From: a bacterium
GTDB lineage: Bacteria > Verrucomicrobiota > Kiritimatiellia > CAIVKH01
Length of the DNA stretch: 64,000 nucleotides
Reading direction: 5' to 3'
Assembly (NCBI GenBank): GCA_043802525.1
Contig: JAZDKY010000075.1
Location: 267-64,266, forward strand
Position numbers and translations under genes: made by a program. Numbering within the stretch: the first letter of the stretch is position 1; each line of letters begins with the position of its first letter. Positions 5,930 to 58,037 of the stretch are shown here, piece by piece. The notes under the pieces are model-generated. The model saw nothing but the letters and a program-made list of their open reading frames with translations. It had not been told where the DNA came from and searched no databases.

Positions 5930-6050
5930 GGGAACCACGAAAAACACGAAAGACACGAAAATTCCAGGCGTTGGAAAGTTAAGAGCGGGAAATTCCAATC
6001 GTTGAAAATTCTTTCGTGTATTTCGTGTATTTCGTGGTTCAAATTCCGGA
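5930..6050. repeat. MITE-like palindromic element with (CACGAAA)n inverted termini
   Basis: CCACGAAAAACACGAAAGACACGAAAA ... TTTTCGTGTATTTCGTGTATTTCGTGG. The core holds an internal palindrome TTCCAGGCGTTGGAAA/TTCCAATCGTTGAAAA. A related core occurs at 57893-57945. Confidence 0.6.
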
Positions 6051-6057
6051 GATCACT

Positions 6058-6471
6058 ATGATCAGGAAACTATTCAGCGCGAAGGCGGGGAGGCAGATTT
6101 CGATTTTCATCGAGAACCGGCCGGGCAGCCTCGCCGAGGTCATCGACCTGCTGGGGGCGAACGGGATCAACATGATCGCGCTGTCGCTTTCCGAAGGCTT
6201 GGACCTCGGCTACCTGCGCATCGTGGTGGACAATCACGAAGAAGCGAAGAAGATCCTGCATGCCAAGGGCCATCTCGTGCTGGACCGCGACATCATCCTC
6301 GTTGAAGTCGCGAACGAACCCGGCGGCCTCGCCAGCGCGATCGACAAGCTCGTGCAGGCGCAGATCAATGTGGAATATGCCTACAGCGCGAACAGCCTGA
6401 AAAACGACCACAGCCTGATCGTCATCAGGGTTGGCGATGCGGCCAAGGCGTTGAAGGTTGTTGAGGCGTAA
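6058..6471 (+). CDS. ACT domain-containing protein
   Basis: Two ACT-like segments (ISIFIENRPGSLAEVIDLL...; IILVEVANEPGGLASAIDKL). Start chosen at MIRKLF. Confidence 0.55.
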   Translation: MIRKLFSAKAGRQISIFIENRPGSLAEVIDLLGANGINMIALSLSEGLDLGYLRIVVDNHEEAKKILHAKGHLVLDRDIILVEVANEPGGLASAIDKLVQAQINVEYAYSANSLKNDHSLIVIRVGDAAKALKVVEA

Positions 6472-6549
6472 TACCCAATCGTCCTCGCTTGCCTCGCCGT
6501 TGCTCGGAGAAGGCGAGTTCTCGTCGTCCTCGAAGGATCGCGCGACTCG

Positions 6550-7185
6550 TTATTTATCGTTTTTAGGATCGACCCCAATCGGCCCCGCGCCAACCGCCTT
6601 CTTGTTGTTCTTCCACCAGTCTTCCCATCCAGAAAGGTCTCGGACACCGCCATCGAGAACGGCGCGGTAAATGTCGGTGCTCTTGATTTCCTGTCTATAG
6701 TTCGGGCGTGTGCACAGCTCGGCCTTGATGAGAAGAATGGCATCTCGGGCGCTGGTCGTCAGTTCCAAGACGAGTTCTCTGCCCGGGGCAATCGTTTGTG
6801 CCACGAGTTCGGGAGAGCCCAGGAGAATGTCCACTTTCCAGATTTCGCGGTCAGCGTGAAGGAACTCTGTGCAGACGAAGACAGCCTTCGGATTCCCTTC
6901 CGTCATCAGCACGTGTTCATTGCGGATGTAGATGCTGGCGACAGCGTTGCTCTTGCAAATCTGTGCCACAATCTCAGATGCAATGAGCATCGGTTCGCCG
7001 GCTATGGGCAGACAGATATCGAGATCACGCCAGGTCATCAGATCGTAGAAGTAGCTGCCCGTGAAGGTCACTGTACCGTGCTTCGCGAGTACCGCTCGAA
7101 GATTCGTCTCAACAAGAAGCTGATCGGCTTCCCGTTTCAGCGCCGCTGCTTGTTCATGTGGTGTTGTCATTATCCGCTGGCTCAA
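6550..7185 (-). CDS. Nucleotidyltransferase-fold protein (Pol-beta superfamily), function unknown
   Basis: TGSYFYDLMTWRDLDI fits the hG[GS]x9-13DxD NTase motif. The region has lower GC than its flanks. Confidence 0.4.
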   Translation of the reverse strand: MSQRIMTTPHEQAAALKREADQLLVETNLRAVLAKHGTVTFTGSYFYDLMTWRDLDICLPIAGEPMLIASEIVAQICKSNAVASIYIRNEHVLMTEGNPKAVFVCTEFLHADREIWKVDILLGSPELVAQTIAPGRELVLELTTSARDAILLIKAELCTRPNYRQEIKSTDIYRAVLDGGVRDLSGWEDWWKNNKKAVGAGPIGVDPKNDK

Positions 7186-7225
7186 CGTCCGGCCTCAGTA
7201 ACCTGGACGCCGTGGTCGTGCGTCC

Positions 7226-7954: not shown

Positions 7955-7986
7955 TCCTTTCTGATGTTCGGTATTCCACAGGTAAA

Positions 7987-8253
7987 TCATTCGTAGTGTG
8001 TCCACATGCGGAGCACTTTTACGACGTTGTCCTGCTTGAGAAGCTGGTAGACCAAGCGATTATGGATGTTGATTCGTCGCGAGCAGGCACCCGTCAGATC
8101 ACCGATGAGCTTTTCGTGGGGTGGCGGATTCCGGAAGGGATTCGTTGCGAGGACTTCAAGGAGCTTCTGGGCTTGTGATCGCAAACCCGCGTGCGCAATT
8201 CGCTTGGCATCCTTTTGCGCCTGCCTGGTGAACAGAACGGTCCAAGCGCTCAC
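7987..8253 (-). CDS. yoeB: Type II toxin YoeB/Txe family (mRNA interferase)
   Basis: 88 aa. The C-terminus ...NRLVYQL...VVKVLRMWTHYE is the YoeB signature. It overlaps the upstream antitoxin by 4 nt. Confidence 0.85.
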   Translation of the reverse strand: MSAWTVLFTRQAQKDAKRIAHAGLRSQAQKLLEVLATNPFRNPPPHEKLIGDLTGACSRRINIHNRLVYQLLKQDNVVKVLRMWTHYE

Positions 8254-8492
8254 CAGCCGGGTTCCCGTGAGCAGTTCTTCGTGGAAGTCTTCATGCCTTC
8301 GACGATCGATTTGCGCATGCCGGGAATCGAGACAAGGTGCAGCGTTTCCTGTATGGAGCGCCAGTCACTCCCGGAAAGCAGGACCGCATCGGACCGCTTA
8401 CCGGTGATTTGAACGGGCTCATGGGAATCAGAAACTTGATCAATCAAGGCGTAGAGCCTGGTGCGCGCTTTGGTTGCAGTTATCGTTGTCAT
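8250..8492 (-). CDS. yefM: Type II antitoxin YefM/Phd family
   Basis: MTTITATKARTRLYALIDQVSDSHEPVQITGKRSDAVLLSGSDWRSIQETLHL is a typical Phd/YefM. It is translationally coupled to yoeB. Confidence 0.85.
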   Translation of the reverse strand: MTTITATKARTRLYALIDQVSDSHEPVQITGKRSDAVLLSGSDWRSIQETLHLVSIPGMRKSIVEGMKTSTKNCSREPGW

Positions 8493-9486: not shown

Positions 9487-9503
9487 CTTGCACTTTCCTC
9501 GTT

Positions 9504-10970: not shown

Positions 10971-11543
10971 ATGATCACTGTAGTTTCTGGCCTGCCGCGG
11001 TCCGGCACGTCGTTGATGATGCAGATGCTGTATGCCGGCGGCATGCCCGTGTTGACGGATAACCTCCGTACCCCCGACGCCAACAACCCGCAGGGTTTCC
11101 TCGAATACGAAAAGGTCAAGGCCCTCAAGAAGGACAACACGTGGATGGGCGAGGCCGAGGGCAAGGTGGTCAAGATCGTCTCACACCTTCTCCAGAGCAT
11201 GGACATGAAGTACCAGTACCAGATGATCTTCATGGTGCGCGATGTGGAAGAGGTCGTTTCATCGCAGGCGTCGATGCTGGAGCGGCTGGGGAAAACCGGC
11301 TCGCAGGCGCCGACGGAAAGCCTGCTTCGCCACTACGCGCGTCACCTGGCCGAAATCCGCGAGTGGCTCGGCAAGCAGCCGAATGTCCGCGCGCTCTACG
11401 TCTTCCACCGCGACGCAGTCCTGCAGACGGATCGCGAGGCCGGGAAGATCAACGAATTCCTGGGCGGTCGGCTGGACGAGGCGAAGATGAGAGCCATCAT
11501 CGACAGGTCGCTGTACCGGGAACGCAAGTCGAAGAACCAATAA
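10971..11543 (+). CDS. Sulfotransferase-family protein
   Basis: MITVVSGLPRSGTSLMMQML is a 5'-PSB P-loop-like motif of sulfotransferases. RBS GGAAGGAAA upstream. Convergent with cysC. Confidence 0.6.
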   Translation: MITVVSGLPRSGTSLMMQMLYAGGMPVLTDNLRTPDANNPQGFLEYEKVKALKKDNTWMGEAEGKVVKIVSHLLQSMDMKYQYQMIFMVRDVEEVVSSQASMLERLGKTGSQAPTESLLRHYARHLAEIREWLGKQPNVRALYVFHRDAVLQTDREAGKINEFLGGRLDEAKMRAIIDRSLYRERKSKNQ

Positions 11544-11660
11544 GCAATAACCAATAACCAATAACCAGTAACCAATAACCAATAACCAAGAAACAATAAC
11601 CAAAAACCGATATCCAATAACCAGGGAGACGGAGTTTGGTTATTGGTGCCTGGTTATTTC
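11538..11660. repeat. (CCAATAA)n heptamer tandem array (about 11 units) ending in a hairpin CCAATAACC..GGTTATTGG
   Basis: The array starts in the sulfotransferase stop codon (AACCAATAA) and runs to the cysC stop. The inverted copy forms a terminator-like stem. Confidence 0.8.
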
Positions 11661-14856: not shown

Positions 14857-15094
14857 TTTGTGCTGACAGGTGAATGTGAGCGCCCCCTGCCGGCTTGTCC
14901 GGCAGGAGCGCCAGGTTGCTGATGGCCGCGCAGACGCAGCCATCAGGAACCGCGTTCACCCGCCTTCGCCGGCTTCGGCGCGGCAGGCTGAGCGGGGCGG
15001 CTACAACAGACAGGCGGCCGCGAAATTTGTTAACCCGCTCTGGCTCGCCGGGTTTCAAGTGCGTATTCCGGCTGGGCCGGGGGGGGGGTAGCCC

Positions 15095-17743
15095 TCACGC
15101 TCGCGGCACCGAGGGCTGCGGCGACAGGGTGGGCTGGAACTCCAACTGTTCAATGACGTAGGAGAGCTCGCGAGGATCGGTGCCCATGTCGTGATGGGCG
15201 GGCACGAACGATGACTCTGCCATGAGGCCTATCCGCGTGAGTCGGCCTTGCGCGCCCGTAGGTACCTTCAGGACGGTGGACTCGTCAGACGACGTGAAGG
15301 TCGCCGTGGCGACTTCACCGTTGTCGATGCTCGCAAAGACCCGGAAGGGGAATACGCCATACAGCTCGGATTGGCTGCATCGGATTCTGATGGCCAGGGT
15401 GTGCGGTCCCGGCAGGGCGGTGTCCAGTTCGAGTTCGGCGAGCGGGCCGGCCCATTTGATGGGATCGCGGTGGTGGAATCCCCTGATTTTCCGCAGCCGG
15501 AAGAAGGGCGTTGCCTGAAGCAGGTCGCCGTCCGCGTTCACGTTGGAGACCATGAGGGACAAGTCGCGGTGATCGGCGTTGATGCCGAGCCGTGCAGGGA
15601 CAAAGGATTCCGAGCAGCAGATATCGATCATGTGGGCGGCAAGCCCCGCTGGCAGGAGAAACCTGATGTCGTGGTGCCCGTCCGTGGCCTGGATCGTCAC
15701 ATCGGCCGCGGCCGCGCCGTTGACGCGCAGCCGTACGCGAAGCGGCCATTGCCGGTAGCAGTGCGCGCGGTTTGCCTGGACGGTGAATCCAAGCGTGTGG
15801 GAACAGGTCGACCGTGTGAGCAACAGCAGCGTGCAACGGCGTGAAATCCAGCGCTGACCCGGCGCATGCGGGGGGTAGCTCCCGTGGAGAAAGCGCGCGA
15901 TGAGGGGAGGTGAATCGACGGCAAGGCCTGTCTGCTTGGTCGGATCAAAGGAGAAAAAGTCGGAGCATGTGCTCAGGTTGCGGTTGTAGAACGGATCCCC
16001 GTGACGAAGCACGTAACGGTGGGACCGTCGCAGGAGGCGTTTGGATGCATGCTCCCCGGGGCTGTCGTCGAAGCGCCCGCGCGTGTGGCCTTCGTCGTGG
16101 TAGAGCAGGGCCCGTGGCGTAAAAATGACGCTGTGCCCGTGGCGGCCGGCGCGGAGGCAAAGGTCGACGTCCTGCCAGGCCCGGTCCATGCGTTCGTTGA
16201 AACCGCCCAGTTCTTTGAAAACGTTGCGGCGAACCATCATGCATGCGCCCGTTACGGCGCTGCATTCGCGGACGACGCCTGCAAACCCGTTATACCCGGG
16301 ATCGTCGTGCGGCATGCCACCGTAGTTGGCCGCGTTGCCTTGGTAGCCGACGATGATGCCGGCGTGTTGTACCGTGTGGTTCGGATAAAGCAGTTTTGCA
16401 CCCGCGATGCCGACGCCGGGCTGGAGAACCTGCTCGAGCAGCGCCTCCAGCCAGTCGGGTGAGATGACCTGTGTGTCGTTGTTGAGGAACACAAGGATAT
16501 CGCCTTTCGCGGCCGCGACGGCCATGTTGTTCATCCGCGAGTAATTGAAACGGCCGCGGTAGGGCAACACGCGATGCCGGAGGCTTGCGAGATAGTCCCG
16601 CGCGGCGGGCTCATCGCTCTCGTGGTCGATCACGAGAAGCTCGAAATTCGGGTAGGTCGTCCGTGCCTCGATGCTCTCGATGCATCGGCGAAGAATGGTG
16701 TCCTGGTTCCTGGTGGGTATGATGATGGATACCATGGGCTGCTCATTGATCGGGTAGCGCACGATGTAGCGCGCCTCGTCGCTGTCGATGCGCGCCGGCG
16801 TTACGTGGCCTGAAATACACCGACGCGCCAGCGCGTCGTGCAAGACCAGGAGGTCGCCCTCTTGCGATGAATGGGGCGGCGGACTGCGGCGCAGGTAAAG
16901 CGCTTCGTCGATGTGCTCGATATTCCGGGCCTGCTCAGTGACGCGCAGATTGAAGTCGTATGCGTGTCCGCCGGCCGCCGTCTCGCGAAAGCCTCCCGCA
17001 GAGTGTGCCATATCGCGGCGCACGACGAGGAGTCCGCCCAGGTAGTTGGTCGACAGAAGAAGGTGTGGCGACCAGTCCGGCTTGTAGAAATGGGCTGCGA
17101 TGGCTCCCCCTTCGTCGAGCGTGACTTCGTCGCTGTACGCAAGGTCGACGTGCGGGTGTCGCACTGCGTGGCGGGTGACGCGGTGCAGGGCCCCTGCGGA
17201 TAACTCGTCGCCCGCACGGAGAAAGCCGACGAAGTTCGCGGTGGCCGCGGCCATCAGAGCATTCAGTTCGCCGATTTCCGTGTCGCTCGACCTGGTGTCC
17301 ACGGCGCGGATTCTCTTGTCGATGGCGGCCGCGACGGTCCACGCGCCCGGGACGCAGAGTTCCCACTGGAGCCACGACTGTCGCAGGAGGGAATGGATCG
17401 ACCGGACCACCAGCGCATAGTCGTCCGAAGGACCACGCGTGAGCAGGATGCTGATTCGTGGACCACTCCGGCCTGCGTGTCGTTCGTTTGCAGTCCGCGT
17501 CGCGCGAAAAGACTTGGCGGCTTGGGAAAGGCGGAACAACCCTGTCAGAAAACGCCCACGCACCGTATGGGCCAGACGTCCCCGTACATCGATCACGTGT
17601 TCGACGGTTCCGGAACAACCGCGGGTGTCCTGTTCCGCAACGACCATGGCATCAAACGCCCGGAGTTTTCCGACGCCGCCTCGCCTGAGACGATTCTGGA
17701 CGCAACTCGATTCCATGTTGTTTTGCGGGACAGGACACGGCAC
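15095..17743 (-). CDS. Large glycosyltransferase with tandem GT2 domains plus a C-terminal domain of about 300 aa of unknown function
   Basis: MVSIIIPTRNQDTILRRCIESI...LVIDHESDEP...LNNDTQVISPDWL (GT-A DXD). An earlier GT2-like segment reads ISILLTRGPSDDYALVVRS. Confidence 0.7.
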   Translation of the reverse strand: MPCPVPQNNMESSCVQNRLRRGGVGKLRAFDAMVVAEQDTRGCSGTVEHVIDVRGRLAHTVRGRFLTGLFRLSQAAKSFRATRTANERHAGRSGPRISILLTRGPSDDYALVVRSIHSLLRQSWLQWELCVPGAWTVAAAIDKRIRAVDTRSSDTEIGELNALMAAATANFVGFLRAGDELSAGALHRVTRHAVRHPHVDLAYSDEVTLDEGGAIAAHFYKPDWSPHLLLSTNYLGGLLVVRRDMAHSAGGFRETAAGGHAYDFNLRVTEQARNIEHIDEALYLRRSPPPHSSQEGDLLVLHDALARRCISGHVTPARIDSDEARYIVRYPINEQPMVSIIIPTRNQDTILRRCIESIEARTTYPNFELLVIDHESDEPAARDYLASLRHRVLPYRGRFNYSRMNNMAVAAAKGDILVFLNNDTQVISPDWLEALLEQVLQPGVGIAGAKLLYPNHTVQHAGIIVGYQGNAANYGGMPHDDPGYNGFAGVVRECSAVTGACMMVRRNVFKELGGFNERMDRAWQDVDLCLRAGRHGHSVIFTPRALLYHDEGHTRGRFDDSPGEHASKRLLRRSHRYVLRHGDPFYNRNLSTCSDFFSFDPTKQTGLAVDSPPLIARFLHGSYPPHAPGQRWISRRCTLLLLTRSTCSHTLGFTVQANRAHCYRQWPLRVRLRVNGAAAADVTIQATDGHHDIRFLLPAGLAAHMIDICCSESFVPARLGINADHRDLSLMVSNVNADGDLLQATPFFRLRKIRGFHHRDPIKWAGPLAELELDTALPGPHTLAIRIRCSQSELYGVFPFRVFASIDNGEVATATFTSSDESTVLKVPTGAQGRLTRIGLMAESSFVPAHHDMGTDPRELSYVIEQLEFQPTLSPQPSVPRA

Positions 17744-24893: not shown

Positions 24894-25048
24894 AAACGGC
24901 CCCATGAGGTGGAGTTCACATTTTGCCCGCAGCGGGCAATTGGAAAAATCGCCGAACAAAGTTCCAAGGATTGGACGTTTGAACCGCGGAGGACACGGAG
25001 CTTCGCGGAGGAACTACAAACACCTCCGCGTACCTCTGCGGTGAACCA

Positions 25049-25687: not shown

Positions 25688-25757
25688 TGAGGTTTCAGGT
25701 GTCAGGTTTCAGGTGTCAGGGCAGCGTTTGCTGACACCTGACACCCGACACCTTCTT

Positions 25758-29433: not shown

Positions 29434-29789
29434 CGGGATTGTGCTGGTCGGGACGGCTGGCCTCCTTTGACAGGCTCAGGGCAGGCAGCCCCGCCCTTCG
29501 CCGTAACGATGCACTTGGAGAACCGTGAATTTCCGCCCGAGGCGGATCCGTCTTCGGCCATGCGCATCAACCTGACGCAGAAGCAGTTCATCTGTGAATC
29601 TCCTGATCCGGGACGAGCCGGGTTTTGGAGTGCGGCGGCTTGCCGCCGCTTTGTAAGCGTGCGGCATGACGCACGCTGAAGGGGCGCCGCTACCCACCTC
29701 CGCCAATCCGCCGGAGGCGGACAGGGGCTTGCCCGCCAACTGGCCATGTGCATCAACCTAAGGCGTATCCATGCCGTTGCAATAGCCAC

Positions 29790-29975
29790 GAAGACGCACC
29801 CGCCTTCGTCCCGCCTCGGAGGCGGGACTTCGGCGAGGCAGGCAAGAGGCACAAAGAAAGAAAATTGCGAAGCGACGCCATCGAGAAAGATATTCACCGA
29901 TCAGCGATCCAAACCCGGCGCGCCTGATTATCGATCCGCGACTTCTTCTTGTGCCTTTTCGTGCCTCTTCGTGGC
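29790..29975. repeat. MITE-like palindromic element (CCACGAAGA..GCAC termini; core palindrome CGCCTTCGTCCCGCCTCGGAGGCGGGACTTCGGCG); a homologous copy lies at 54355-54490
   Basis: The two copies share about 85% identity over termini and core. Both are intergenic. Confidence 0.6.
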
Positions 29976-30110
29976 CAATCCGTCTGCATCGTTACAGCCT
30001 AGGTTGATGCGTATGGCCAACTGGCGGGCTACGGTGGGCAGGCAAGCCACCGCACTGCAAAGCCAGCGCACGTTGCATGGGCGAAGGAGGGTCCAGTCGT
30101 GGTTGAAGTT

Positions 30111-42588: not shown

Positions 42589-42665
42589 CGGAGCGTAGCG
42601 CAGCCTGGTAGCGCGTCAGCCTTGGGCGCTGAAGGTCGAGAGTTCAAATCTCTCCGCTCCGACCA
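42589..42665 (+). tRNA. tRNA-Pro (anticodon TGG)
   Basis: Cloverleaf: acceptor CGGAGCG/CGCUCCG, D-arm GCGC..GCGC, anticodon stem UCAGC/GCUGA with loop CUUGGGC, T-arm GAGAG-UUCAAAU-CUCUC, 3' CCA encoded. 77 nt. Confidence 0.85.
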
Positions 42666-43004
42666 TCCTACGCTCCCTTCGGGAGCTACGGATAGCGCGG
42701 CTCTCCTACGCTCGCGTTGGGAGCTTCCGCCTTCGCCGACAAGCTACGGCGGACAAGTCGGATGACAAGCCATCCTGTAAGATGCGGTGAGAGTTGAACT
42801 TGGCGCCGAAGGCGCCGCCCTTCAGCGGAGCTCGAGACAGGTGGCCGACCGTGTCCCGCCGCCGCTCGTTCTGAGCGAAGGCGGATATTCCTTCTTCGGG
42901 GGGCGCGCGAAATTTATCAAACGACCAGCTTCACCGCCGGTGCCCATGGCTCTTCTCTGAAACCGTGCCGGATACGCCGTACGAGCGCTGGTTGGGGCCC
43001 GCAG

Positions 43005-43289
43005 CTACAGAGAGAGGACAAGTCGCAAGCCGTCATCCACTTGCTGCATTTGTAGCGCGGATAATTTGCCCGATTGCTCGACAAGAAACTCTTTATCGAT
43101 CGTCACAATTTGGGAAACGCTTGCGACAGAATCTTTTGGAAGGCCTGTGCCTTTTGCTTTGATCAGCACATTCCCGGGTGCGTCAGCCAGCGCAAGGGTG
43201 TAGAGTTTGCTTCGGGTGAGGCCGAGTCTGCGGGCAACTTGTTCGGCAGCCTCGAAGAGGTTGTTCGGCACTGAAATGGCGGTCTTCAT
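43005..43289 (-). pseudogene. Degenerate MazE-MazF (PemI/PemK-type) toxin-antitoxin remnant; antitoxin N-terminus fused in-frame to toxin C-terminus
   Basis: MKTAISVPNNLFEAAEQVARRLGLTRSKLYTLALA is an AbrB/MazE-like antitoxin. It runs directly into GLPKDSVASVSQIVTIDKEFLVEQSGKLSALQMQQVDDGLRLVL, a MazF/PemK C-terminal half. The toxin N-terminal half is absent. Confidence 0.6.
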
Positions 43290-43434
43290 GCAGGGGAGTA
43301 TAACCGTAGTTATACCTTTGTCAAAAGCCCCAGCGATGGTATTGGGCGGCAAACTGAACCAGTACCGGTCAGCCAAACGGCTTGTCTCCCCGGGCCCCCA
43401 TAGCCTAGAGTCCGCAGGCATTTTCGGGGAAACC

Positions 43435-44472
43435 ATGTCACAGGAAACATTTGGAAGAATCCTGCTGGGTACGGCCGACGATCTCGGCCGGGCTCATGCG
43501 CGTTGGCAGCAACAGGCGGTCGATTGGGACCTCACCAACGGGCATTCACCTGCTCCGGCGCACCGCCAGCGGACGATCGCACGGCCCGTGTCCGTGGCTG
43601 GCCCGGGCACCTTCCTCGGCAAGGCGACCCGGACCCTTCGCTTCGAGCCGACCAACGAGCCGGGCTGGTGGTTCAGCCGCGAGGACCTGGGCGGCGATTG
43701 CCTTCCCGTGGCCGGATCCATCCGCAATGTGTGGACGATCGGCGATGTGGTCAGCAACATCGTCCTGCGCAGCGGACATCCGAGCAACTACATCCGTATG
43801 GTCGAGCATGTCATTGCGCTACGGCTCGGACTGGGCATCGACAACCTCATGATCCGCATGGAGTCCGGCGACCCGCCGCTGTTCAAACGGGGGAGTCTCG
43901 ACCTGATCGACGCGCTCGAGGGCGCGGGCATCGTCGAGCAGGACCTGCCGGTCAACTACTTCACCGTGAAGGAAAAAGTCAGCGTCGTCACGCCGTCGGG
44001 CAGTTTCCTGATCCTCTCTCCGTGTCGTCCCGGGGAGCTCGTGCTGAACCTCGACTGCGCGGTCGATTTCCCGACCGCCATCGGCAGGCAACGCATCCGT
44101 TTTCCGCTCACGCTCGAGCATTTCAAATACGGCGCGGAAGCGCGCACCAATACGTCGTTTGCCAAGATGCTGTTCTGCAAAACGATCGGCAAACTTTTCG
44201 CGGACATCCGCAACCTTGGCTACACGATGGACAACATTCTCGTCGCGGGCAAATCCGGCTACCTGAACGAGGCGAGACTCGTTCACGACGGGAAATCGCT
44301 CGAGGCGGTCTGGCACCGCGCGGTGCTCGACCTCGTGGCCGCGCTGGCCCTGGTCGAAAACGGGCGGTTTGCCGGTGACGTCGTTTCCTACTGCGCCGGC
44401 CACGGCCTCGACTGCCACATGGTGCGCCTGCTGTACAAGCACAACCTGCTGCAGCGCGTCGCGCCGGCTTGA
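43435..44472 (+). CDS. lpxC: UDP-3-O-acyl-N-acetylglucosamine deacetylase family protein (LpxC-like)
   Basis: KQRTIARPVSVAGPGTFLG..., VEHVIALRLGLGIDN (cf. LpxC TVEHLLAAL.GLGIDN), AGKSGYLNEARL. Confidence 0.65.
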   Translation: MSQETFGRILLGTADDLGRAHARWQQQAVDWDLTNGHSPAPAHRQRTIARPVSVAGPGTFLGKATRTLRFEPTNEPGWWFSREDLGGDCLPVAGSIRNVWTIGDVVSNIVLRSGHPSNYIRMVEHVIALRLGLGIDNLMIRMESGDPPLFKRGSLDLIDALEGAGIVEQDLPVNYFTVKEKVSVVTPSGSFLILSPCRPGELVLNLDCAVDFPTAIGRQRIRFPLTLEHFKYGAEARTNTSFAKMLFCKTIGKLFADIRNLGYTMDNILVAGKSGYLNEARLVHDGKSLEAVWHRAVLDLVAALALVENGRFAGDVVSYCAGHGLDCHMVRLLYKHNLLQRVAPA

Positions 44473-44856
44473 TATGGAGTGCGGCGGCTTGCCGCCGCCA
44501 TGTTGGGCGCAGCTTGCTGCGCCTTGACAAGGCGCAGGCAAGTCGTGGCGAAGCCCGATCAGGGCTCACGCGTGACCTGCGCACTCCATGACAACGAATT
44601 TCTCACACGTTCCTTGCGCGAGTCGGTTTGACTTGCTGCATGACGCATTCCTCCGAAACCGATGCCCTGATGTACCGCGCCATCTGGATCTCCGATGTCC
44701 ACATCGGCTCGCCGTCCTGCCGGTCAGGTCGTTTGAGATCTCGTACGCGAGGGAAAAATCGGACGCCGAAAGCCGCGTGGCCACGGCGAAGTTCAAGCAC
44801 TGAGAAATGCATGGGAAAGGGACAGAAGGGACGTAATGGACGCAAGGGATTGGATA

Positions 44857-45285
44857 TTACTTGTTCCTTTGCGCTAGTCGTGCCTTGGTCATGCGCTCGC
44901 GGAGGCCGCCATCCTGGACGAAATTCTTTTCCAAGGCTGCGATCTGCCGGTCCAGGAGTGTGTTGGTGACCTTGATGAGGCCGAGAATGACATTCGAGCA
45001 GATCGCGGGATCCTCATGCTCAATGCCCTTCTTGAAGGTTCCGTAGTTGGCGCCATCGGTTCGGCAAAGCTTCGAGAGGCGTTTCGCATAACGATGCGTC
45101 TTTGGCCACGCCTCTATCCCGCGCGGCCTCATAAAATCGAGATAGTCGTTGAGGAGTTCCTCGAGACTGCCCCGCGCGACGTTGGTGAGTTTCAGTTCAA
45201 ACTCTTTCGAGGTTCCTGAAACCTGGCTGCCCTCCGCGATATTCTGTTTTCCAGACCTCGCAGCTTGAACCCGCCTTCGCCAAGG
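44857..45285 (-). pseudogene. N-terminally truncated four-helix-bundle (TIGR02436-like) gene with C-terminal suffix domain; no start codon upstream of the NIAEG motif
   Basis: The open frame reads ...SGKQNIAEGSQVSGTSKEFELKLTNVARGSLEELLNDYLDFMRPRGIEAWPK... The frame opens just after a TAG at 45286-45288 with no ATG before NIAEG. It is flanked by inverted GGGAC-type short repeats (44805-44850; 45437-45475). Confidence 0.55.
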
Positions 45286-45471
45286 CTACGGCGGGCAAGC
45301 CATCTGATCATGGGTCCGGCTCCGTTTGTCGATGAACCGGTCACAGAAATAGACCGTGGCATCATAGACAATCTCAGCCTTCTGAAACGAAAGCAGATCA
45401 CGATAGCCACCATGTGGCGGAATGAAGCGCTCAGTCACTTAGGTCCCTTCAGTCCCTTTCGTCCCTTCTTT

Positions 45472-46590
45472 TTACGGCAGGAACTTCCCTTTCTTCAGTT
45501 TCTCGGGCAGGTAGTGGTCCAAAACGAAATTCAGGCCGTGTTTGGCGAAGGCCTGCTGCTCGATGCGGACGCCGAGCTTGAGCATATGCTCGAGGGCGTG
45601 CTGCCATTCCTTGTGGTGCCGGATGAAGGGGTCGTTCTTCAGCGCGTCCTTCGCGCGTTTGATGTCGGCTTCTTCGAGCGGGTGTGTCGCATCCTCGAGT
45701 TTGTAGTCCGCGATGTCCTGCGGTGTGACACCGAGGTAGTGGACCTGCGGCACGCAGAAGAACCGGTTGATGTGCGCGGCCTGGCCGGAGCCGACCTTCA
45801 GCGTGCGGTAGATGTTGCAGTAGCCGTACGGGTCGCCGTCGGTGAAGGCCAGCACCGGCACCTTCTGGTCGTCCGCCAGCCGGCGGATGAAACGCCTGCA
45901 CGCGCGGGTCGGCACACCGCTCATCGAAATGAGAATGCAATTTGCCTTCTCATAATATCGGTGATGGACGAGGCGCTGGAAGAGCGACGCGGTCTCGACG
46001 GTGAGGATGAGCTTGGCCTTCGTCTGGAACCGCAGGTGCTCGACCCGCGAGGGGATGCTCCACGCGCCCGTGCCGAGCTTCGTGCAGTCGATCTTGATGT
46101 CCTTGCCCGTGGCGGGATCGCGGTCGATGACGACAAGCGGCCCGCACACGTCGCCGCCGCGCTCCTCGGGAATGTAGCCGAGCTGCTCGCGGTTGATCCC
46201 GAGCATCGCCTCGATGTCGTCCAGCAGCGTGTCGCTCTCCGGCTGCTCGTTGAACCGGCACTCACCCCAGCTCTTGCTGTTGTAATAAATCTCGCGCTTC
46301 CCCGCGATGTCGTCCTTGTCGAGCAGGTCGTTCTTCGTCGTCGACAGGAGCCGCATCGACTGCGCGAACGTCTTGACCGTGTTGTACGAGAGCGTCCGCG
46401 TCGCGACCTTGTTGAGGATCTCGAAATGCCCGCGCTTCGTGTCGTACTTCACGTTCGCGAGCGAGCGGATCGGGAACCGCATCGACGGCTTCCGTTTCTT
46501 CTTGATGATGTCGGTGTGGATATCGCCCGCCACGTCGACGATCTTCCTGGACGCGGCCTGCTTGGAAATGACTTCGGGTGCTTCAGCCAT
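45472..46590 (-). CDS. top6A: DNA topoisomerase VI subunit A (Spo11/Top6A)
   Basis: Catalytic-Tyr region GKREIYYNSK. Toprim E in LILTVETASLFQRL. DxD in VLAFTDGDPYGYCNIY. RBS AGGAGT; start MAEAPEV. Confidence 0.8.
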   Translation of the reverse strand: MAEAPEVISKQAASRKIVDVAGDIHTDIIKKKRKPSMRFPIRSLANVKYDTKRGHFEILNKVATRTLSYNTVKTFAQSMRLLSTTKNDLLDKDDIAGKREIYYNSKSWGECRFNEQPESDTLLDDIEAMLGINREQLGYIPEERGGDVCGPLVVIDRDPATGKDIKIDCTKLGTGAWSIPSRVEHLRFQTKAKLILTVETASLFQRLVHHRYYEKANCILISMSGVPTRACRRFIRRLADDQKVPVLAFTDGDPYGYCNIYRTLKVGSGQAAHINRFFCVPQVHYLGVTPQDIADYKLEDATHPLEEADIKRAKDALKNDPFIRHHKEWQHALEHMLKLGVRIEQQAFAKHGLNFVLDHYLPEKLKKGKFLP

Positions 46591-46609
46591 GGTATTACTC
46601 CTGATTTTT

Positions 46610-46740
46610 GACCGCAGAGGACCCGCCTTCGCCAATGACTACGGCGAGGCAAGCGCAGAGGCGCGCGGAGGTTCGGAAGTTCTCGGAAAACCTCTGCGCA
46701 TCTCTGCGTCCTCTGCGGTTCAATTCTCCCCCATTCAACC
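46610..46740. repeat. MITE-like element with (CTCTGCG)n / CGCAGAGG inverted termini and core CCCGCCTTCGCCAATGACTACGGCGAGGCAAGC
   Basis: The core motif CCGCCTTCGCC..CTACGGCG..CAAGC recurs at 42725-42780 and 45262-45300. The right arm recurs at 57990-58030. Confidence 0.55.
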
Positions 46741-47543: not shown

Positions 47544-47870
47544 CTCTTAATCGTAATCTTAATCGTACTCGTAATCGTAATCATGATTAGCGCTCGTCGC
47601 CGGTCACATACGCAGCACCGTCCTCGTGCACCCGCCATGCCGAATTGCTCCTGATCAAGCCGGCCGGCATGGAAACAACGGCAAGGAGTCTTTATTCCCC
47701 TCGTGCAACGAGTTCAATGCAGGGGTTGTAGATATTCAGTTTCTCGTGGTCGAAGAGCTGTAGCATGAGGGGTGCTTCTGATGTGATTACGATTAGGATT
47801 AGGATTACGATTACGATTACGATTACGATTACGATTACGATTAGGATTGGGGCCGAGATTAGGATTATGA
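47541..47870. mobile_element. Hexanucleotide-repeat-armed element (left arm (CGTAAT/CTTAAT)n 47545-47585; right arm (GATTAC/GATTAG)n 47775-47862) enclosing a deleted four-helix-bundle gene remnant (47692-47769, minus strand, MLQLFDHEKLNIYNPCIELVARGE*)
   Basis: The arms are inverted tandem hexamers. The internal sequence CGTCCTCGTGCACCCGCCATGCCGAATTGCTCCTGATCAAGCC... aligns with the 55576-55650 junction of the intact copy. The remnant N-terminus aligns with MNSKPLFDHEKLEVYQLSIEF of the 55587-55982 gene. Confidence 0.6.
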
Positions 47871-50915: not shown

Positions 50916-51204
50916 CCGGGCGTTCGTACCGGTCGGGCTCTGCGAACTGAAGTTGCAGGACCGTACGGCCCCCGGCGGTGGCCGGTTCGTTCGGAGCGGA
51001 AAGTTTTAGCCGCAAAAGAACGCAAAGAATCCGCCCCTTATTGCCCGTTATTTCTGAGGGCTATGGGGGTGGAGCCTCTTTGCGCTCCTTCGCGGCTCAA
51101 ATTCGTGACGATTCGTGTCCATTCGTGGTTTGCTTCTCCGTGTAAGGTTCCATCTTTCACTTCGAGTTCTTGACTCATAATAGTATGTCACGTATGTACA
51201 GATC

Positions 51205-51778: not shown

Positions 51779-52291
51779 ATGTTGGATAACGCGACCATCC
51801 AGAAACTCTTCGAAGCCCTGAACCGGGCGCTCAAGGCCCGGAAGGTCGTGGGTGAAATCGGTCTCTGCGGGGGCGCGGTCATGTGCGTGGTTTTTGAAGC
51901 CCGCGTGTCGACCAAGGACGTCGACGGCATTTTCGAACCCACGTCGGAGATTCGAAAAGCGAGCCGGGAAGTCGCCCGTGAGATGGGCGTTCCGCAGAAC
52001 TGGCTGAAGGACGTCGCGAAGGCCTATTTCCTGAGCGATCCGCCGCGGGTCCCGGTCATGGACCTCTCCAACCTGCGCATCTGGGCCCCGAGGGCCGACT
52101 ACATGCTGGCCATGAAATGCGTATCCGCCCGGTTTGACACGCACGATACCGACGACGTGAAGTTCCTGGTCCGTCATCTTGGACTGAAAAAACCGGGCGA
52201 CGTCTTCGAGATCGTGGAGAAGTACTATCCCCGGAAGCAGGTTCCGTCCAAGACCCAAATCCTGATCGAGGAAATCATGCAGAAAAGCTAG
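51779..52291 (+). CDS. Minimal nucleotidyltransferase (Pol-beta fold; MntA/AbiEii-like)
   Basis: GLCGGAVMCVVFEARVSTKDVDGIF fits hG[GS]x9-13DxD. 8 nt downstream of the XRE gene, so probably co-transcribed. Confidence 0.55.
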   Translation: MLDNATIQKLFEALNRALKARKVVGEIGLCGGAVMCVVFEARVSTKDVDGIFEPTSEIRKASREVAREMGVPQNWLKDVAKAYFLSDPPRVPVMDLSNLRIWAPRADYMLAMKCVSARFDTHDTDDVKFLVRHLGLKKPGDVFEIVEKYYPRKQVPSKTQILIEEIMQKS

Positions 52292-52451
52292 CCGCGAAAA
52301 ACACAAAAATAAACGCCCCATAACCCTCGGAATTTCGAAGGTGGGTCATGGGGGTGGGGGTTATGGTGTTTTTCGTGGCCATTCTGCGCTATTCCGCGCC
52401 GGCCCTTTCAAGCTCTCGTGTCCACTCATACGCGAACCAGGGCTGTTCGCG

Positions 52452-54354: not shown

Positions 54355-54490
54355 AGGTCGGATGGTCACGAAGACGCACCGGCCTTCGCCCCGCCTCGGA
54401 GGCGGGACTTCGGTGAGGCAAGCAAGAGAAGGCCGCCCTTGGAACCCGGGGATCTCTTCTTCGTGCTTCTTGTGCCTCTTCGTGGCTATC
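54355..54490. repeat. MITE-like element, homolog of the 29790-29975 copy
   Basis: TCACGAAGACGCACCGGCCTTCGCCCCGCCTCGGAGGCGGGACTTCGGTGAGGCAAGCAAGAG...CTTCTTCGTGCTTCTTGTGCCTCTTCGTGGC. Confidence 0.6.
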
Positions 54491-54656
54491 TCTGTTGCTG
54501 CTTTACTGTTTCTTCCATTTGGACGGATATGAGGCAGGCTTGCCCTCATGAACCATCATCAATGTGCCACGTGCCCCGTCCCGCCTTGGCGGGCAAGTGT
54601 GACGCGGCTACAGGCAAACATTTAACGCCTTGGCGGGATCTGCTACGCTCCGGTTC

Positions 54657-55140: not shown

Positions 55141-55575
55141 GGATGTATGTCCTCCGCCTCGTAATCCTAATCCTAATCGTAATCGTAATCCTAATCGTAC
55201 TCGTAATCGAATATCCTCGTGCCGCCATGGCCGGTATCGGAGAGTGCAGAGCGGTTATGGCCCGGAGTTTCGATTTCGATTACGATTAGGATTACGATTA
55301 CGATTAGGAATCAGATGTAGACATGGGCCTTGTCGAGCATCCTCTTCAGAGTGCTGACGAGTCTTCGACTCGTCTTTGTCCTTCAGGTCGAGGGCGAGGT
55401 GGGGGGCTATGTCCTCCGCCTCGTAATCCTAATCCTAATCCTAATCGTAATCGTAATCCTAATCGTACTCGTAATCGAATGTCCTCGTGCAGCCATGGCC
55501 GGTATCGGAGAGTGCAGAGCGATTATGGCCCGGATTTTCGATTACGATTACGATTACGATTGGGATTACGATTGG
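55141..55575. repeat. Two tandem units of about 170 bp (55141-55310; 55421-55575), each hexamer inverted arms (CGTAAT/CCTAAT)n ... (GATTAC/GATTAG)n around a 65-bp core, separated by a degenerate copy of the topoisomerase VI-B 3' end (55316-55415)
   Basis: The units are over 90% identical. The core reads GAAT[AG]TCCTCGTGC[CA]GCCATGGCCGGTATCGGAGAGTGCAGAGCG. The 55316-55415 segment aligns with 56109-56215 (shared TCCTTCAGGTCGAG, TCGAGCAT; translates LDLKDKDE.. against LDLKEKDEDRIVKDLKKMLEKTHLEV). Confidence 0.7.
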
Positions 55576-55586
55576 GAGGGCAAGCC

Positions 55587-55982
55587 TCATCCCCACGTTG
55601 CGCTGTCTTCATGAACGCGCATGGGCGAATTGCTCTTGATCAAACCAACAAGCATGGAGACGATCCGCGCCAGCATGACCTTGCCCTCGACGATTGCATC
55701 TGCATCCACTTTCCTTTTCGCGACGAGAACGTCGAGACACGCCGCGCATTCCAACGCCGATCCTCGCGCTATATCGAAAAAGCGACACCGGTCGTTTTCA
55801 GTGTAGCGGCCATTGCCTTCAGCCGTGTTCAGCGGAATGGAGGTGGAAGCCCGATCAATATTGTCGCGCGCAGCAAGCGTACGCGGGACATCAGCTACGA
55901 TGGGTTCTAGCCAGGCGATGAATTCGATGGAGAGTTGGTAGACTTCGAGCTTTTCGTGGTCGAAGAGAGGTTTGGAATTCAT
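55587..55982 (-). CDS. Four-helix-bundle protein (TIGR02436 / 23S rRNA intervening-sequence protein family)
   Basis: 131 aa. FDHEKLEVYQLSIEF...IPLNTAEGNGRYTENDRCRFFDIARGSALECAACLDVLV is the family signature. Confidence 0.75.
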   Translation of the reverse strand: MNSKPLFDHEKLEVYQLSIEFIAWLEPIVADVPRTLAARDNIDRASTSIPLNTAEGNGRYTENDRCRFFDIARGSALECAACLDVLVAKRKVDADAIVEGKVMLARIVSMLVGLIKSNSPMRVHEDSATWG

Positions 55983-56059
55983 GGTCTTCCCTCCGTTTCG
56001 TAATCGTACTCGAATTCCGTTCCTGCCGCTCCGTTCGGTGGTGAGGGACGTAGGGCGTT

Positions 56060-56106
56060 TATACTTCTGATATTCGATTACGATTACGATTACGATTACG
56101 ATTACG
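56060..56106. repeat. (ATTCGATTACGATTACG...)n hexamer array, right arm of the element, abutting the top6B stop codon
   Basis: ATTCGATTACGATTACGATTACGATTACGATTACGAATCAG. Confidence 0.7.
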
Positions 56107-56108
56107 AA

Positions 56109-57875
56109 TCAGACTTCCAGATGCGTTTTCTCGAGCATTTTCTTGAGGTCTTTGACGATCCGATCTTCATCCTTTTCCTTCAGGTCGAGAATCTGCCTCA
56201 ATCCCAACGCAAGGTGCGGGATGTAGAGCTCGATGTAGTTCTTCTTCCTCGCTTCCTCCAACTCGCGGTTGCGTTTGTGGAGGAAGACGGACAATCGCCG
56301 ACCGCATTCCTGCAGGCCTAGTGTGATCTCATTGAGGATTTCCTGGTAGCTGGCGAGGGCGTCCTTGCTCTCGCTTGTGAACGGGACCCAGACGCTGGCC
56401 ATGTGGATCATCAATACGACCGGGCCTTGCGGCAGCCCGTCTCTGGGCTGGTTCAGGCCGTACGATTTCCAGTTTACGCCGCACGTCGCTTTCGTGATCG
56501 CGCAGGCGCCGGGCTGGTAGAGCAGAGGAACCCGGTTCGCAAATCGCAGCAGCCGCACGGGCTCTTCCTTGCCCATGTCCTGGTCGGTATTTTCCGAGGG
56601 TCGCGTGTACGCGACGCCGATCTCGATCTGAAACGGGTTGCCGCGGTAGACCGACGGGTCGCGCGTGAGGGACGTGAAAAAGTCGGCTTTGAATTCTTTC
56701 TGCAATCCCGCAAGAATCTGTGTCTCGCCAATCGGCGACAAACAGTCCGTTGGTGGCCGCATCAACTTCGTTTCCTGGATCGCCTTGTACAAGGCCTCGG
56801 CTTCCTGGTGCGCGACGCGGGTCGGGTTCGCTTTCGGGTTCAGGCCGGCGCGTTCGCAGATCTGCAGCGCGGTGCCGGTACTGACGCGGGAGAAGTCGGT
56901 CGACAACGCCCCGCGCAACGTGCGCGATTCGGAGTCCTTCAACATCTGCATCAGCATCCCGATCTCCACGCCGTGCGGATGCGGCATGATCTCCTGCGCC
57001 GGCAGCGGGACCTGTTTGGTGGCACGGAGGTAGGTGATGCGGAGTTCTGCTTTTGCTGGTTTTTCATCCGATGTAGGCCGCGTGACCCCACGCGGCGCGG
57101 ACCCCGCCGGGTCGGCGACCCGGCCTACAACGAGACGGTAGTGCAGCGTCACATGCGGGTTCACGATCGCGCACTGCTTCACGAATTCGTCGACGGACTG
57201 CTTGCCCCGCTGGTACGCGGCTTCCATGTCGATCGAGACACACGTGCCGTGCTTGTACGTGGAGGCTTCCCCGTCCGATTTCCCTTCCGCGTTCACGGCT
57301 TGGAACGTCGGCAGCCACTCGGCTTCCTCGTCGGTCAGGATGGTAGGCTTATTCTGGCGCGTATCGATCTGCACGGCCATGGAATGCGCCTTCTTGCTGC
57401 CCGAAATCTTCGACAGGATGCGCGTCGACGAACCGGTCGTGAGCTGGCCGTACATGCCCGCTGCGCTGATGCCGATGCCCTGCTGGCCGCGCGACATGCG
57501 GAGGCGGTGGAATTTCGAGCCGTAGAGCAGCTTCGCGAAAATCTTCGGGATCTGGCTCTTCACGATGCCGGGCCCGTTGTCGGTGATCGTCACGCGGAAC
57601 CGGCTCTCGGAAATCTGTTCCAGGTCGATGGAAAGTTCGGGGAGGATGTGGGCCTCCTCGCATGCGTCGAGCGAGTTGTCGACCGCCTCCTTGACCGCGG
57701 TCAGCAGCGCGCGGCGCGGGCTGTCGAACCCGAGCAGGTGCCGGTTCTTGAGGAAGAATTCCGAGACCGATATGTCGCGCTGCCGCGCGCCCATGCTCTC
57801 GGCGGTCTCGACCTTCGGTTCCTTCTTCGGCTTCGGTGCCGGGGCTGGAGGGGACGGTGTGGGCGCTTTCTTCAT
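56109..57875 (-). CDS. top6B: DNA topoisomerase VI subunit B (GHKL ATPase)
   Basis: Bergerat-fold motifs EAVDNSLDA (N box), ITDNGPGI (G1), KLLYGSKF, SRGQQGIGISAA (G2), followed by H2TH and transducer regions. Start MKKAPTPSPP. Confidence 0.85.
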   Translation of the reverse strand: MKKAPTPSPPAPAPKPKKEPKVETAESMGARQRDISVSEFFLKNRHLLGFDSPRRALLTAVKEAVDNSLDACEEAHILPELSIDLEQISESRFRVTITDNGPGIVKSQIPKIFAKLLYGSKFHRLRMSRGQQGIGISAAGMYGQLTTGSSTRILSKISGSKKAHSMAVQIDTRQNKPTILTDEEAEWLPTFQAVNAEGKSDGEASTYKHGTCVSIDMEAAYQRGKQSVDEFVKQCAIVNPHVTLHYRLVVGRVADPAGSAPRGVTRPTSDEKPAKAELRITYLRATKQVPLPAQEIMPHPHGVEIGMLMQMLKDSESRTLRGALSTDFSRVSTGTALQICERAGLNPKANPTRVAHQEAEALYKAIQETKLMRPPTDCLSPIGETQILAGLQKEFKADFFTSLTRDPSVYRGNPFQIEIGVAYTRPSENTDQDMGKEEPVRLLRFANRVPLLYQPGACAITKATCGVNWKSYGLNQPRDGLPQGPVVLMIHMASVWVPFTSESKDALASYQEILNEITLGLQECGRRLSVFLHKRNRELEEARKKNYIELYIPHLALGLRQILDLKEKDEDRIVKDLKKMLEKTHLEV

Positions 57876-58037
57876 AGGGGCACAGCGTAGTTTCCAACGA
57901 TTGGAAAAATCACGAAGAAAAGTTCCAAGCGTTGGAAGAAATTGAACCACGGAGGGAAGAGGAGGTTCTGGAGACCGGGCTCGCCATTCCCCAACCTCCG
58001 CGAACCTCTGCGCCCTCTGCGGTTCAAATTGATGCGG

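Follow-up and report, generated by a model that had tools for sequence, protein, structure and literature searches.

Among described systems, the intervening sequences (IVSs) of bacterial rRNA come closest to the elements treated here. The IVS in the 23S rRNA of Coxiella burnetii, described as selfish, has a 28-bp terminal stem with an S23p open reading frame (ORF) in its loop, is cleaved within the stem by RNase III in vitro, and has upstream of the ORF a tandem array of heptamers (GACAGAT) with a strain-dependent copy number (PMC4990558). A long terminal stem, a PF05635 ORF in the loop and tandem repeats in the stem region are shared by the rRNA IVSs of Coxiella, Leptospira, Brucella and Xanthomonas with the repeat-armed hairpins analysed here, which lie in a 64,000-nt stretch of a Kiritimatiellia genome (contig JAZDKY010000075.1, positions 267 to 64,266; hereafter “the window”, GC ~61%). 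The rRNA IVSs have no promoter of their own and are therefore transcribed from the host unit, and the cassettes of the window likewise lack one. Whereas rRNA IVSs are located in helix 25 or 45 of 23S rRNA, the window elements are located between protein-coding genes; their arms consist almost wholly of iterated units, these units are specific to protein subfamilies, and many copies are without an ORF. The repeat-armed hairpins are better framed as an IVS architecture outside rRNA, and we consider it somewhat probable that two unrelated small hairpin DNAs are superimposed in the window, namely IVS-type cassettes and a mini-insertion of 30-32 nt.

For the mini-insertion, the nearest comparisons are other short repeats. 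Elhai (2008) reportedly described the small dispersed repeats (SDRs) SDR1-8 as hairpins of 21-27 nt that are confined to Nostocaceae, often lie in heptamer arrays, can be nested and were proposed to spread by an RNA route. The mini-insertion shares with SDRs a length of tens of nucleotides, compensatory changes, embedding in tandem arrays, nested copies and the absence of an encoded protein, but it is longer (30-32 versus 21-27 nt) and, in a comparison made by description only, has a wider range that includes the Planctomycetes-Verrucomicrobia-Chlamydiae group (PVC), Acidobacteriota, Planctomycetota, Proteobacteria, the candidate phyla radiation (CPR) and others. The short tandemly repeated repetitive (STRR) sequences of cyanobacteria are said to have been described by Mazel (1990) as arrays of intergenic tandem heptamers, with several sequence families per genome. 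The arrays of the window are likewise intergenic and of several families, but they form inverted pairs that fold into hairpins, belong to phyla other than the cyanobacteria and are associated with a family of genes. Repetitive extragenic palindromic sequences (REP/REPIN, including the GTAG and CGTC families) are tagged palindromes of ~30 nt, sometimes intragenic and in frame, and are abundant in the verrucomicrobium Opitutus terrae (PMC3733652). They have in common with the mini-insertion an imperfect palindrome of ~30 nt, high repetition, an unpaired conserved tail and occasional in-frame intragenic copies. While REPs carry an unpaired GTAG end tag outside the stem, the mini-insertion has GTAG (on the complementary strand) in the loop beside the stem and CAAG as its end tag; REP families are specific to a species or genus, whereas the mini-insertion is found across phyla, and no RAYT gene was found among the scanned ORFs of the window.

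At least 15 intergenic hairpins were identified in the window, and their arms are inverted tandem repeats with a period of 6, 7, 9 or 10 nt. Fifteen of the 23 arrays with a period of 5-12 nt have an inverted partner within 400 nt, compared to 0-6 arrays and 0-1 inverted partners in 20 dinucleotide shuffles of the window; the architecture is therefore real and non-random. Minimum free energy z-scores of the RNA folds range from -3.9 to -7.9, and in every case none of 200 shuffles was as stable. An earlier sequence-only reading of this DNA had described small palindromic intergenic repeats with variable microsatellite-like termini, and this part of it stands: every site that it listed holds such an element and is predicted to fold into a hairpin, and Tandem Repeats Finder (TRF) and the folds agree that the termini are inverted microsatellite-like arrays differing between families. 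The motifs that it named are over-represented as well (CCGCCTTCGNC with 36 occurrences versus 13.8 expected, TTCCAACGATTGGAA with 9 versus 1.5 and CCCCATAACCC with 5 versus 0.5). Its own caveat, that the motifs are GC-rich, low-complexity coincidences, could draw on the base composition of the genome (~61% GC), in which a single 11-mer with one mismatch is expected ~14 times; this can practically be dismissed in view of the 15 paired arrays versus 0-1 in shuffles, of the fold z-scores, and of the occurrence at 120 or more loci and the stem covariation of the mini-insertion reported below.

Three of the hairpins carry genes for S23p / 23S rRNA IVS proteins (PF05635/TIGR02436), of which one is intact, one interrupted and one decayed:

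55587-55982, minus strand: intact gene for a 131-aa four-helix-bundle protein (S23p / 23S_rRNA_IVP; PF05635, E 7.5e-18; TIGR02436, 2e-16)
55998-56107: hexamer-arm hairpin, from the stop of the topoisomerase VI-B gene to the start of the 131-aa gene
55148-55582: two near-identical hexamer-arm hairpins, at 55148-55316 and 55410-55582 (z -6.01)
47545-47848: hairpin with hexamer arms, (TAATCG)n...(GATTAC)x10.7, around a copy of the 131-aa gene that has an internal deletion
44812-45468, minus strand: cassette with a 'suffix' gene and inverted nonamer arrays, (GGGACnnnn)x4 at 44812-44850 and (nnnnGTCCC)x4 at 45431-45468
44866-45438, minus strand: interrupted 'four helix bundle suffix' gene of the 183-aa type (TIGR04258, 4.7e-19; TIGR02436)

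The 131-aa protein matches a solved S23p-type structure (PDB 2GSC, 5.5e-6), and its gene is located directly downstream of topoisomerase VI-B with hexamer-arm hairpins on both sides. A segment of ~265 nt that contains a whole hexamer-arm hairpin has been duplicated in tandem at this site with few differences (55146-55415 versus 55410-55680). In the decayed remnant (47608-47757) the ends of the gene were recognised by blastn, and tblastn aligned 34 aa at 50% identity. The (GATTAC)n/(GTAATC)n hairpins at 47545-47848, 55148-55316, 55410-55582 and 55998-56107 represent the largest family in the window and were absent from the sequence-only reading, as were the hairpins at 11535-11660, 24937-25044 and 25690-25753 and the nonamer arms at 44812-44850 and 45431-45468.

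The association between hexamer arms and gene was surveyed in 80 metagenomic relatives of the 131-aa protein (60-69% identity), with flanks of up to 250 nt. At least three copies of TAATC were present upstream in 65 of 74 evaluable flanks and at least three copies of GATTA downstream in 67 of 78, with both arms present in 55 of 72, while only one of 387 control windows from the same contigs reached the hexamer threshold; overall, hexamer arms accompany the gene in ~87% of the relatives versus 0.3% of controls. A typical cassette has ~5 units per array, with a median distance of 28 nt from the upstream array to the start codon and of 19 nt from the stop codon to the downstream array. Neighbouring genes are mostly co-oriented with the cassette gene (41 of 48 upstream, 35 of 42 downstream). 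Within the hexamer a 5-nt motif is near-invariant and the sixth position varies freely; this variable base pairs between the two arms of one cassette at 66% of positions, compared to 47 +/- 4% (maximum 58% in 200 shuffles) for arms taken from different cassettes, which shows that the two arms of a cassette co-evolve. Over 53 cassettes the arms pair along ~30 bp, 86% of it Watson-Crick.

The interrupted 'suffix' gene is 53% identical to the gene found downstream of topoisomerase VI-B in locus L001, which belongs to a relative with 82% identity. Its subfamily has arms of another kind, AGGGACnnn upstream and nnnGTCCCT downstream, and these were found in four genomes (the window, L091, L219/L220 and L225/L227); a relative in L007 has a GTGGAC variant of the arm and the one in L001 has no such unit. 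The units around the 131-aa and 'suffix' genes are distinct, hence the unit is specific to the protein subfamily, and each four-helix-bundle subfamily travels with its own repeat unit. 'Suffix' proteins form a very large family with 70-93% identity across phyla and are often encoded on short contigs, a combination that is typical of multi-copy or transferred DNA. In L091 (6755-7419, minus strand) the 'suffix' gene extends over two overlapping frames, due to a frameshift or another interruption, and so resembles the interrupted copy of the window. A four-helix-bundle gene directly follows each of the two topoisomerase VI subunit genes in the window; in L001 a 'suffix' gene follows subunit B.

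The other hairpins of the window contain no gene. Their arm units are CACGAAAnn (period 9), TCTTCGTGCC (period 10), CCTCTGCGnn (period 10), AGGTGTC (period 7) and AACCAAT (period 7), and inverted-arm families have 2-4 copies each in the window:

5932-6040: hairpin with (CACGAAAnn)x3 inverted arms and two TTCCAAnnnTTGGAA-like palindromes in the loop, making up the whole spacer between the aminotransferase and ACT-domain genes (-47.9 kcal/mol, z -6.05)
11535-11660: (AACCAAT)x12.7 array with a short TTGGTTAT arm in inverted orientation behind it, in the spacer between a sulfotransferase gene and cysC (z -4.43)
24937-25044: TTGGAA..TTCCAAGGATTGGA module with a GAACCGCGGAGG...CCTCTGCGGTGAAC hairpin after it, in a layout homologous to that of 57892-58027 (z -3.91)
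25690-25753: (AGGTKTC)x4.4 / (CTGACAC)x3.3 hairpin in the pnp/nth spacer (z -5.69)
29785-29975: hairpin with CCACGAAGA-type period-10 arms, nested in a 69-nt inverted repeat of larger span (29731-30029), with convergent PAS and Ser/Thr-kinase genes on either side (-85.8 kcal/mol, z -5.62)
46608-46723: hairpin with (CGCAGAGGnn)/(nnCCTCTGCG) period-10 arms, in the spacer between topoisomerase VI-A and a methyltransferase gene (-71.9 kcal/mol, z -7.90)
51004-51127: hairpin GCCGCAAAAGAACGCAAAGA...TCTTTGCGCTCCTTCGCGGC, then an (ATTCGTGnnn)x2.7 array that is not paired (z -3.97)
52291-52379: hairpin GCCGCGAAAAACAC...GTGTTTTTCGTGGC with an inner CCCCATAACCC / GGGGTTATGG pair (z -5.49)
54360-54491: second copy of the CCACGAAGA-arm hairpin, containing the long mini-insertion variant (z -4.09)
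57892-58027: a pair of TTCCAAnnnTTGGAA palindromes and, after them, a GAACCACGGAGG...CCTCTGCGGTTC hairpin, on the upstream side of topoisomerase VI-B (z -5.07)

TRF called the period-9 CACGAAAnn repeat at 5936-6036, a period of 7 at 25690-25753, and a period of 10 at 29947-29973, 54456-54484 and 46690-46720. The module TTCCAA..TTGGAA is present in three elements and CCCCATAACCC in two. Paired 15-nt palindromes TTCCAAnnnTTGGAA, spaced by ~16 nt, were seen in or beside three hairpins (5962-6007, 24937-24976 and 57892-57937), and resemble a dimeric protein-binding site (9 matches versus 1.5 expected). ORFs enclosed by distant inverted arrays in other loci were also considered as cassette genes and rejected, as they proved to be ordinary genes (PII, ABC-2 permease, B12-binding domain, uvrA); such arrays are therefore separate hairpins on either side of a gene. 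One of them, in L115 (~1290-2010, minus strand), is a uvrA-like ORF with a low-complexity insert between inverted (GAGCGTT)n arrays, and is reminiscent of Opitutus terrae, for which uvrA genes interrupted by REPs were reported (PMC3733652).

The second element is the mini-insertion, which reads N-CCGCC-TTCGCCAAGGCTAC-GGCGG-N'-CAAG (in full N-CCGCC-TTCGCC-AAGG-CTAC-GGCGG-N'-CAAG) and folds into a hairpin whose 6-bp stem closes a conserved loop of 14 nt, with CAAG left unpaired at the 3' end. The window contains 5-9 copies, eight of nine of them on the plus strand, which is the G-rich strand, and up to eight copies were found in a single 8-kb locus. Scores are those of R1, a covariance model of the mini-insertion:

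29799-29846, plus strand: long (48-nt) variant in a left arm, after GCAC, with the same composite at 54379-54426
42726-42757, plus strand: solo copy of 32 nt, 61 nt downstream of tRNA-Pro (39.9 bits, E 2.4e-10)
45270-45299, plus strand: copy of exactly 30 nt in the 'suffix' gene, in frame with a TAG stop (58.5 bits)
46622-46653, plus strand: copy of 32 nt in a left arm (30.4 bits)
14957-14989, plus strand: degenerate core-like copy with tail CAGG, downstream of ssb (15.5 bits, E 0.01)
1695-1727, plus strand: degenerate core-like 33 nt with tail CAGG, a weak match (11.7 bits, E 0.15)

The sequence-only reading had taken this sequence for one core shared by the elements. It is in fact present (as CCGCCTTCG..CAAG) in three of the ~15 hairpins (29799-29846, 54379-54426 and 46622-46653), each time within the left arm after the first unit, and it also occurs solo (42726-42757 and 45270-45299). 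Excision of 46622-46653 leaves CCGCAGAGGACGCAGAG, the exact complement of the right arm. In L092, removal of T-CCGCC...GGCGG-A-CAAG restores an in-phase (GGACAGA)n array, so that both ends of the element are fixed and there is no target duplication. At 45270-45299 the interrupted gene translates as ...THDQM|ACPP*PWRRR|VQAARSG..., and the alignment with the homologues of L001 and L007 (A1) has a clean 30-nt gap exactly at the insertion. The supposed core is thus an independent element nested in the arm, and not the centre of the hairpin. The weak copy at 1695-1727 keeps the frame of mazG (1282-2127, plus strand), in which it occupies the linker that joins the two MazG domains and encodes ..DPPSLGSSGAAGP.., and may be a tolerated intragenic insertion.

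These observations bear on the proposal that the hairpins are one family of miniature inverted-repeat transposable elements (MITEs) whose members conserve an internal core, vary in their microsatellite-like terminal inverted repeats and are mobilised by a transposase encoded elsewhere. Like MITEs the elements are small, non-coding, intergenic, repeated and palindromic, they have terminal inverted repeats and fold into hairpins; the core motif recurs, and several elements share GAACC[AG]CG...CG[CT]GGTTC termini. A single family built on a conserved core is another matter: the core is limited to a minority of the hairpins, sits asymmetrically in one arm and leaves an intact arm on excision, it is found alone, within a gene and, in other phyla, without these arms, and the 80 hexamer cassettes are devoid of it. 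In contrast to MITEs, the inverted termini are microsatellite-like arrays, no transposase gene was found among the ~55 window ORFs scanned, and no target-site duplication was present at the small sample of elements read (5932/6040, 46608/46723 and 57942/58027), where the flanks merely extend the palindrome (AATT..AAATT). We therefore consider a common MITE family very improbable; the 'autonomous' partner of the hairpins likely encodes a four-helix-bundle protein and not a transposase.

The distribution of the mini-insertion was investigated in one genome per GTDB species, using a pattern equivalent to 23-24 fixed bases. At least 120 loci in more than ten phyla were retrieved, where by our estimate fewer than one is expected by chance, and the carriers among the matches listed include Verrucomicrobiota, Kiritimatiellia, Lentisphaeria, Planctomycetota, Acidobacteriota, Alpha-, Gamma- and Deltaproteobacteria, Bacteroidales, Nitrospiraceae, Armatimonadota, Acidimicrobiia, Saccharibacteria and Peribacteria. 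The core pattern was also found in 16 IMG/VR contigs, and R1 added ~35 more divergent copies. The unconstrained outermost bases (before CCGCC and after GGCGG) pair in 93% of 126 distinct instances; with R1 this outermost pair is CG in 58, UA in 49, GC in 9 and AU in 5 copies, and unpaired in 9. Double changes occur in five of the six stem pairs, 97% of cells are paired, and none of 500 shuffles equalled the observed covariation. No literal match to the core sequence was found in the literature text searched.

Owing to their position in tandem arrays, 16% of the cores have direct repeats of at least 7 nt at their flanks, versus 3% of controls; for flanking inverted repeats of at least 7 nt the figures are 7% and 0.4%. 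A strict tandem detector, which under-calls, placed arrays beside ~12% of the cores and ~2.5% of the controls, and in-phase arrays surround the cores in L092 and L122. In L092 the core loop holds a different 31-nt hairpin, TCCCAC-TTCACATAAAATTAC-GTGGGA-CAAG, which points to a wider family of the form stem-TTC...TAC-stem-CAAG whose members nest in one another. Target preference is weak (C/G at -2, A/T at -1, C at +1). In strongly skewed loci the core strand is the G-rich strand in 42 cases versus 21, a bias compatible with a strand-specific, single-strand mechanism, and several nearby copies in L047 and L051 share the same strand. The core is absent from 225 kb around the 80 hexamer cassettes, from which it follows that mini-insertion and cassettes are independent. 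In L009, L042, L044 and L061 the halves of the 30-mer are themselves iterated, e.g. (CCGCCTTTGCCAAGGCTT)n ... (CGGCGGACAAGT)n, so the mini-element may seed new tandem arrays.

Under the reading of two superimposed elements, the cassette would be a long inverted repeat of iterated 6-10-nt units that in its full form has an S23p / Avd-like gene in the loop. Cassettes are located in ordinary intergenic spacers, usually co-oriented with both neighbours, and the gap between arm and ORF is too short for a promoter. They would be read through from the upstream gene, and the arms could pair in the transcript into a duplex of ~30-50 bp that, by analogy with rRNA-borne IVSs, might be cut by RNase III. 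The gene-less hairpins with other units may represent reduced, MITE-like relatives of the gene-bearing cassettes, with 47545-47848 as a candidate decayed intermediate, and the iterated units would allow several pairing registers as well as expansion and contraction by slippage. The 30-mer, in turn, would insert precisely and without target duplication into repeat arms, a coding gene and elsewhere. It may be moved in trans by an enzyme of the HUH/Y1 type that recognises the single-stranded hairpin and tail, in the manner of REPs and IS200/IS605; alternatively, it could travel through an RNA intermediate, the route suggested for the SDRs of cyanobacteria. Its presence in many phyla implies either horizontal spread or a very widespread mobilising function.

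Several results weigh against this reading. RNase III processing of the cassettes would be carried over from rRNA IVSs by analogy. Mismatches in the arms are equally often G.T (33) and A.C (35), and thus leave no sense-strand RNA signature. The unit motif is far better conserved than the arm pairing, so that a model of protein-binding arrays stays alive and fits at least as well as an RNA stem. When 0.9 Mb of core-bearing loci were searched with subfamily HMMs and jackhmmer, no additional four-helix-bundle gene came up, including none with CACGAAA, CGCAGAGG, AACCAAT or AGGTGTC arms, hence the units of the gene-less hairpins are not tied to any gene. Four cassettes were found between the same two genes in different metagenomes; at least some cassettes are therefore old and stable, which indicates long vertical retention and not frequent movement. 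As regards mobility of the 30-mer, Pfam scans of ~55 window ORFs revealed no transposase, RAYT or reverse transcriptase, its sequence constancy across phyla is partly imposed since the scan pattern fixed most positions, and its overall preference for the G-rich strand is modest (79:56, binomial p 0.058).

The stability of some cassettes would suit an account in which the hairpins are immobile regulatory structures of the host that arose in place by slippage and arm-to-arm copying and act as mRNA 3'-end stabilisers, attenuators or processing sites, the genes being ordinary small genes. Their positions suit it too: the sequence-only reading placed the elements at nearly every accessory gene boundary, which does not hold, as the neighbours include pnp, nth, rpsO, cysC, ssb, lpxC, mazG, dapF, topoisomerase VI A/B and aminotransferase/ACT; the hairpins fill unidirectional spacers next to housekeeping genes, and the cassettes have co-oriented neighbours and arms that co-vary. 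A terminator scan, on the other hand, called none of the arm hairpins and there is no U-tract, for which reason a simple-terminator reading was also dropped; units recur in other genomes (CACGAAGAG in L027, AACCAAT as an inverted pair in L075, an Opitutus sp. metagenome-assembled genome), and L001 is without any of the arrays. Together with the decayed gene copy, the local duplication and the 70-93% identity of 'suffix' proteins across phyla on many short contigs, this makes an exclusively host-structural origin rather unlikely.

The conservation of the motif above its pairing is what would be expected if the arms were DNA arrays of putative protein-binding sites, for the four-helix-bundle pentamer or for a nucleoid- or partition-like factor, with hairpin potential as a by-product. 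The homologue Avd is a pentamer that binds nucleic acids, every protein subfamily comes with a unit of its own, the hexamer has a near-invariant 5-nt motif and a free sixth position, the periods of 9-10 nt equal one helical turn, and the lack of a G.T excess over A.C is in line with such arrays. The excess of sixth-base pairing within cassettes, above the maximum of the shuffles, and the retention of both arms by gene-less hairpins do not fit them, and we are doubtful of this explanation.

The protein family itself has been connected with other systems. Avd, of diversity-generating retroelements, belongs to the same four-helix-bundle superfamily (PMC10053308). A retroelement of this type was dropped as an explanation, as the scanned window ORFs have no reverse transcriptase domain and there is no template/variable repeat pair. 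Among the proteins listed as newly associated with CRISPR arrays or adaptation modules, '23S rRNA IVP' is named (PMC10910872), an entry that might reflect an array detector picking up the flanking tandem arrays. A CRISPR reading of the window arrays was considered and dropped.

Both the cassettes, relative to rRNA IVSs, and the 30-mer, relative to SDRs and REPs, extend known kinds in ways that we did not find described. More tentatively, four-helix-bundle genes with cognate arms may constitute a widespread, unrecognised class of hairpin cassettes, of which rRNA IVSs would be the subset that landed in rRNA, with a 30-nt CAAG-tailed hairpin superimposed. If so, each protein would recognise the unit of its own arms, with the gene-less hairpins as non-autonomous derivatives, while the 30-nt hairpin would be among the smallest mobile elements and the first to extend across many phyla, including CPR and viral contigs. 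The pairing of subfamily and unit offers a handle on two questions that are decades old, the origin of rRNA IVSs and the role of the abundant TIGR02436 proteins, and raises the question of whether the four-helix-bundle protein binds the cognate repeat at the DNA or the RNA level. Mobile DNA would have a lower minimum size and a wider host range if it included an element of 30 nt that has precise ends, does not duplicate its target and is distributed across phyla; such an element points to a mobilising activity. On the practical side, the repeats probably break up metagenome assemblies, as the length of many carrier contigs (only ~1-2 kb) suggests, and they create spurious low-complexity ORFs and may be mis-called as CRISPR-like arrays.

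Pfam annotation of ~55 window ORFs revealed largely ordinary chromosomal genes, among them aminotransferase, ACT-domain protein, mazG, dapF, cysC, sigma-54 activator, ssb, glycosyltransferases, sulfatase, BlaR1-like, rpsO, pnp, nth, Ser/Thr kinase, lpxC, topoisomerase VI A and B, carbonic anhydrase, PPK2 and two toxin genes. With Rfam at gathering thresholds, the whole window yielded tRNA-Pro only and no rRNA. The features referred to are:

7987-8253, minus strand: type II toxin gene, YoeB/ParE-like, in a stretch of lower GC (6-8 kb, GC 0.55)
42589-42665: tRNA-Pro
43005-43436, minus strand: type II toxin gene, MazF/PemK-like
45472-46635, minus strand: topoisomerase VI subunit A gene
56109-57875, minus strand: topoisomerase VI subunit B gene, with the true start (588 aa) taken from database protein P0001

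Beyond an identical database protein, the nearest relatives of topoisomerase VI-B are from Lentisphaerae, Kiritimatiellae and Verrucomicrobia, which places the window in the PVC superphylum. The two subunit genes are ~9.4 kb apart, and a methyltransferase, carbonic anhydrase, PPK2, a helix-turn-helix protein and most of the hairpins are located between them. Directly 3' of tRNA-Pro (42666-42800) there are small hairpins (CTACGCTCCC-TTCG-GGAGCTACGG and others), followed by the solo 30-mer. Hairpin density is clearly greater from this region to 58 kb than in the first 42 kb, for which reason the stretch might be an island integrated at the tRNA. Finally, a run of ~10 G (cggggggggggt) at 15075-15090, just downstream of the stop of a glycosyltransferase gene (the large gene at 15095-17743, minus strand), could be a slippage-prone tract.

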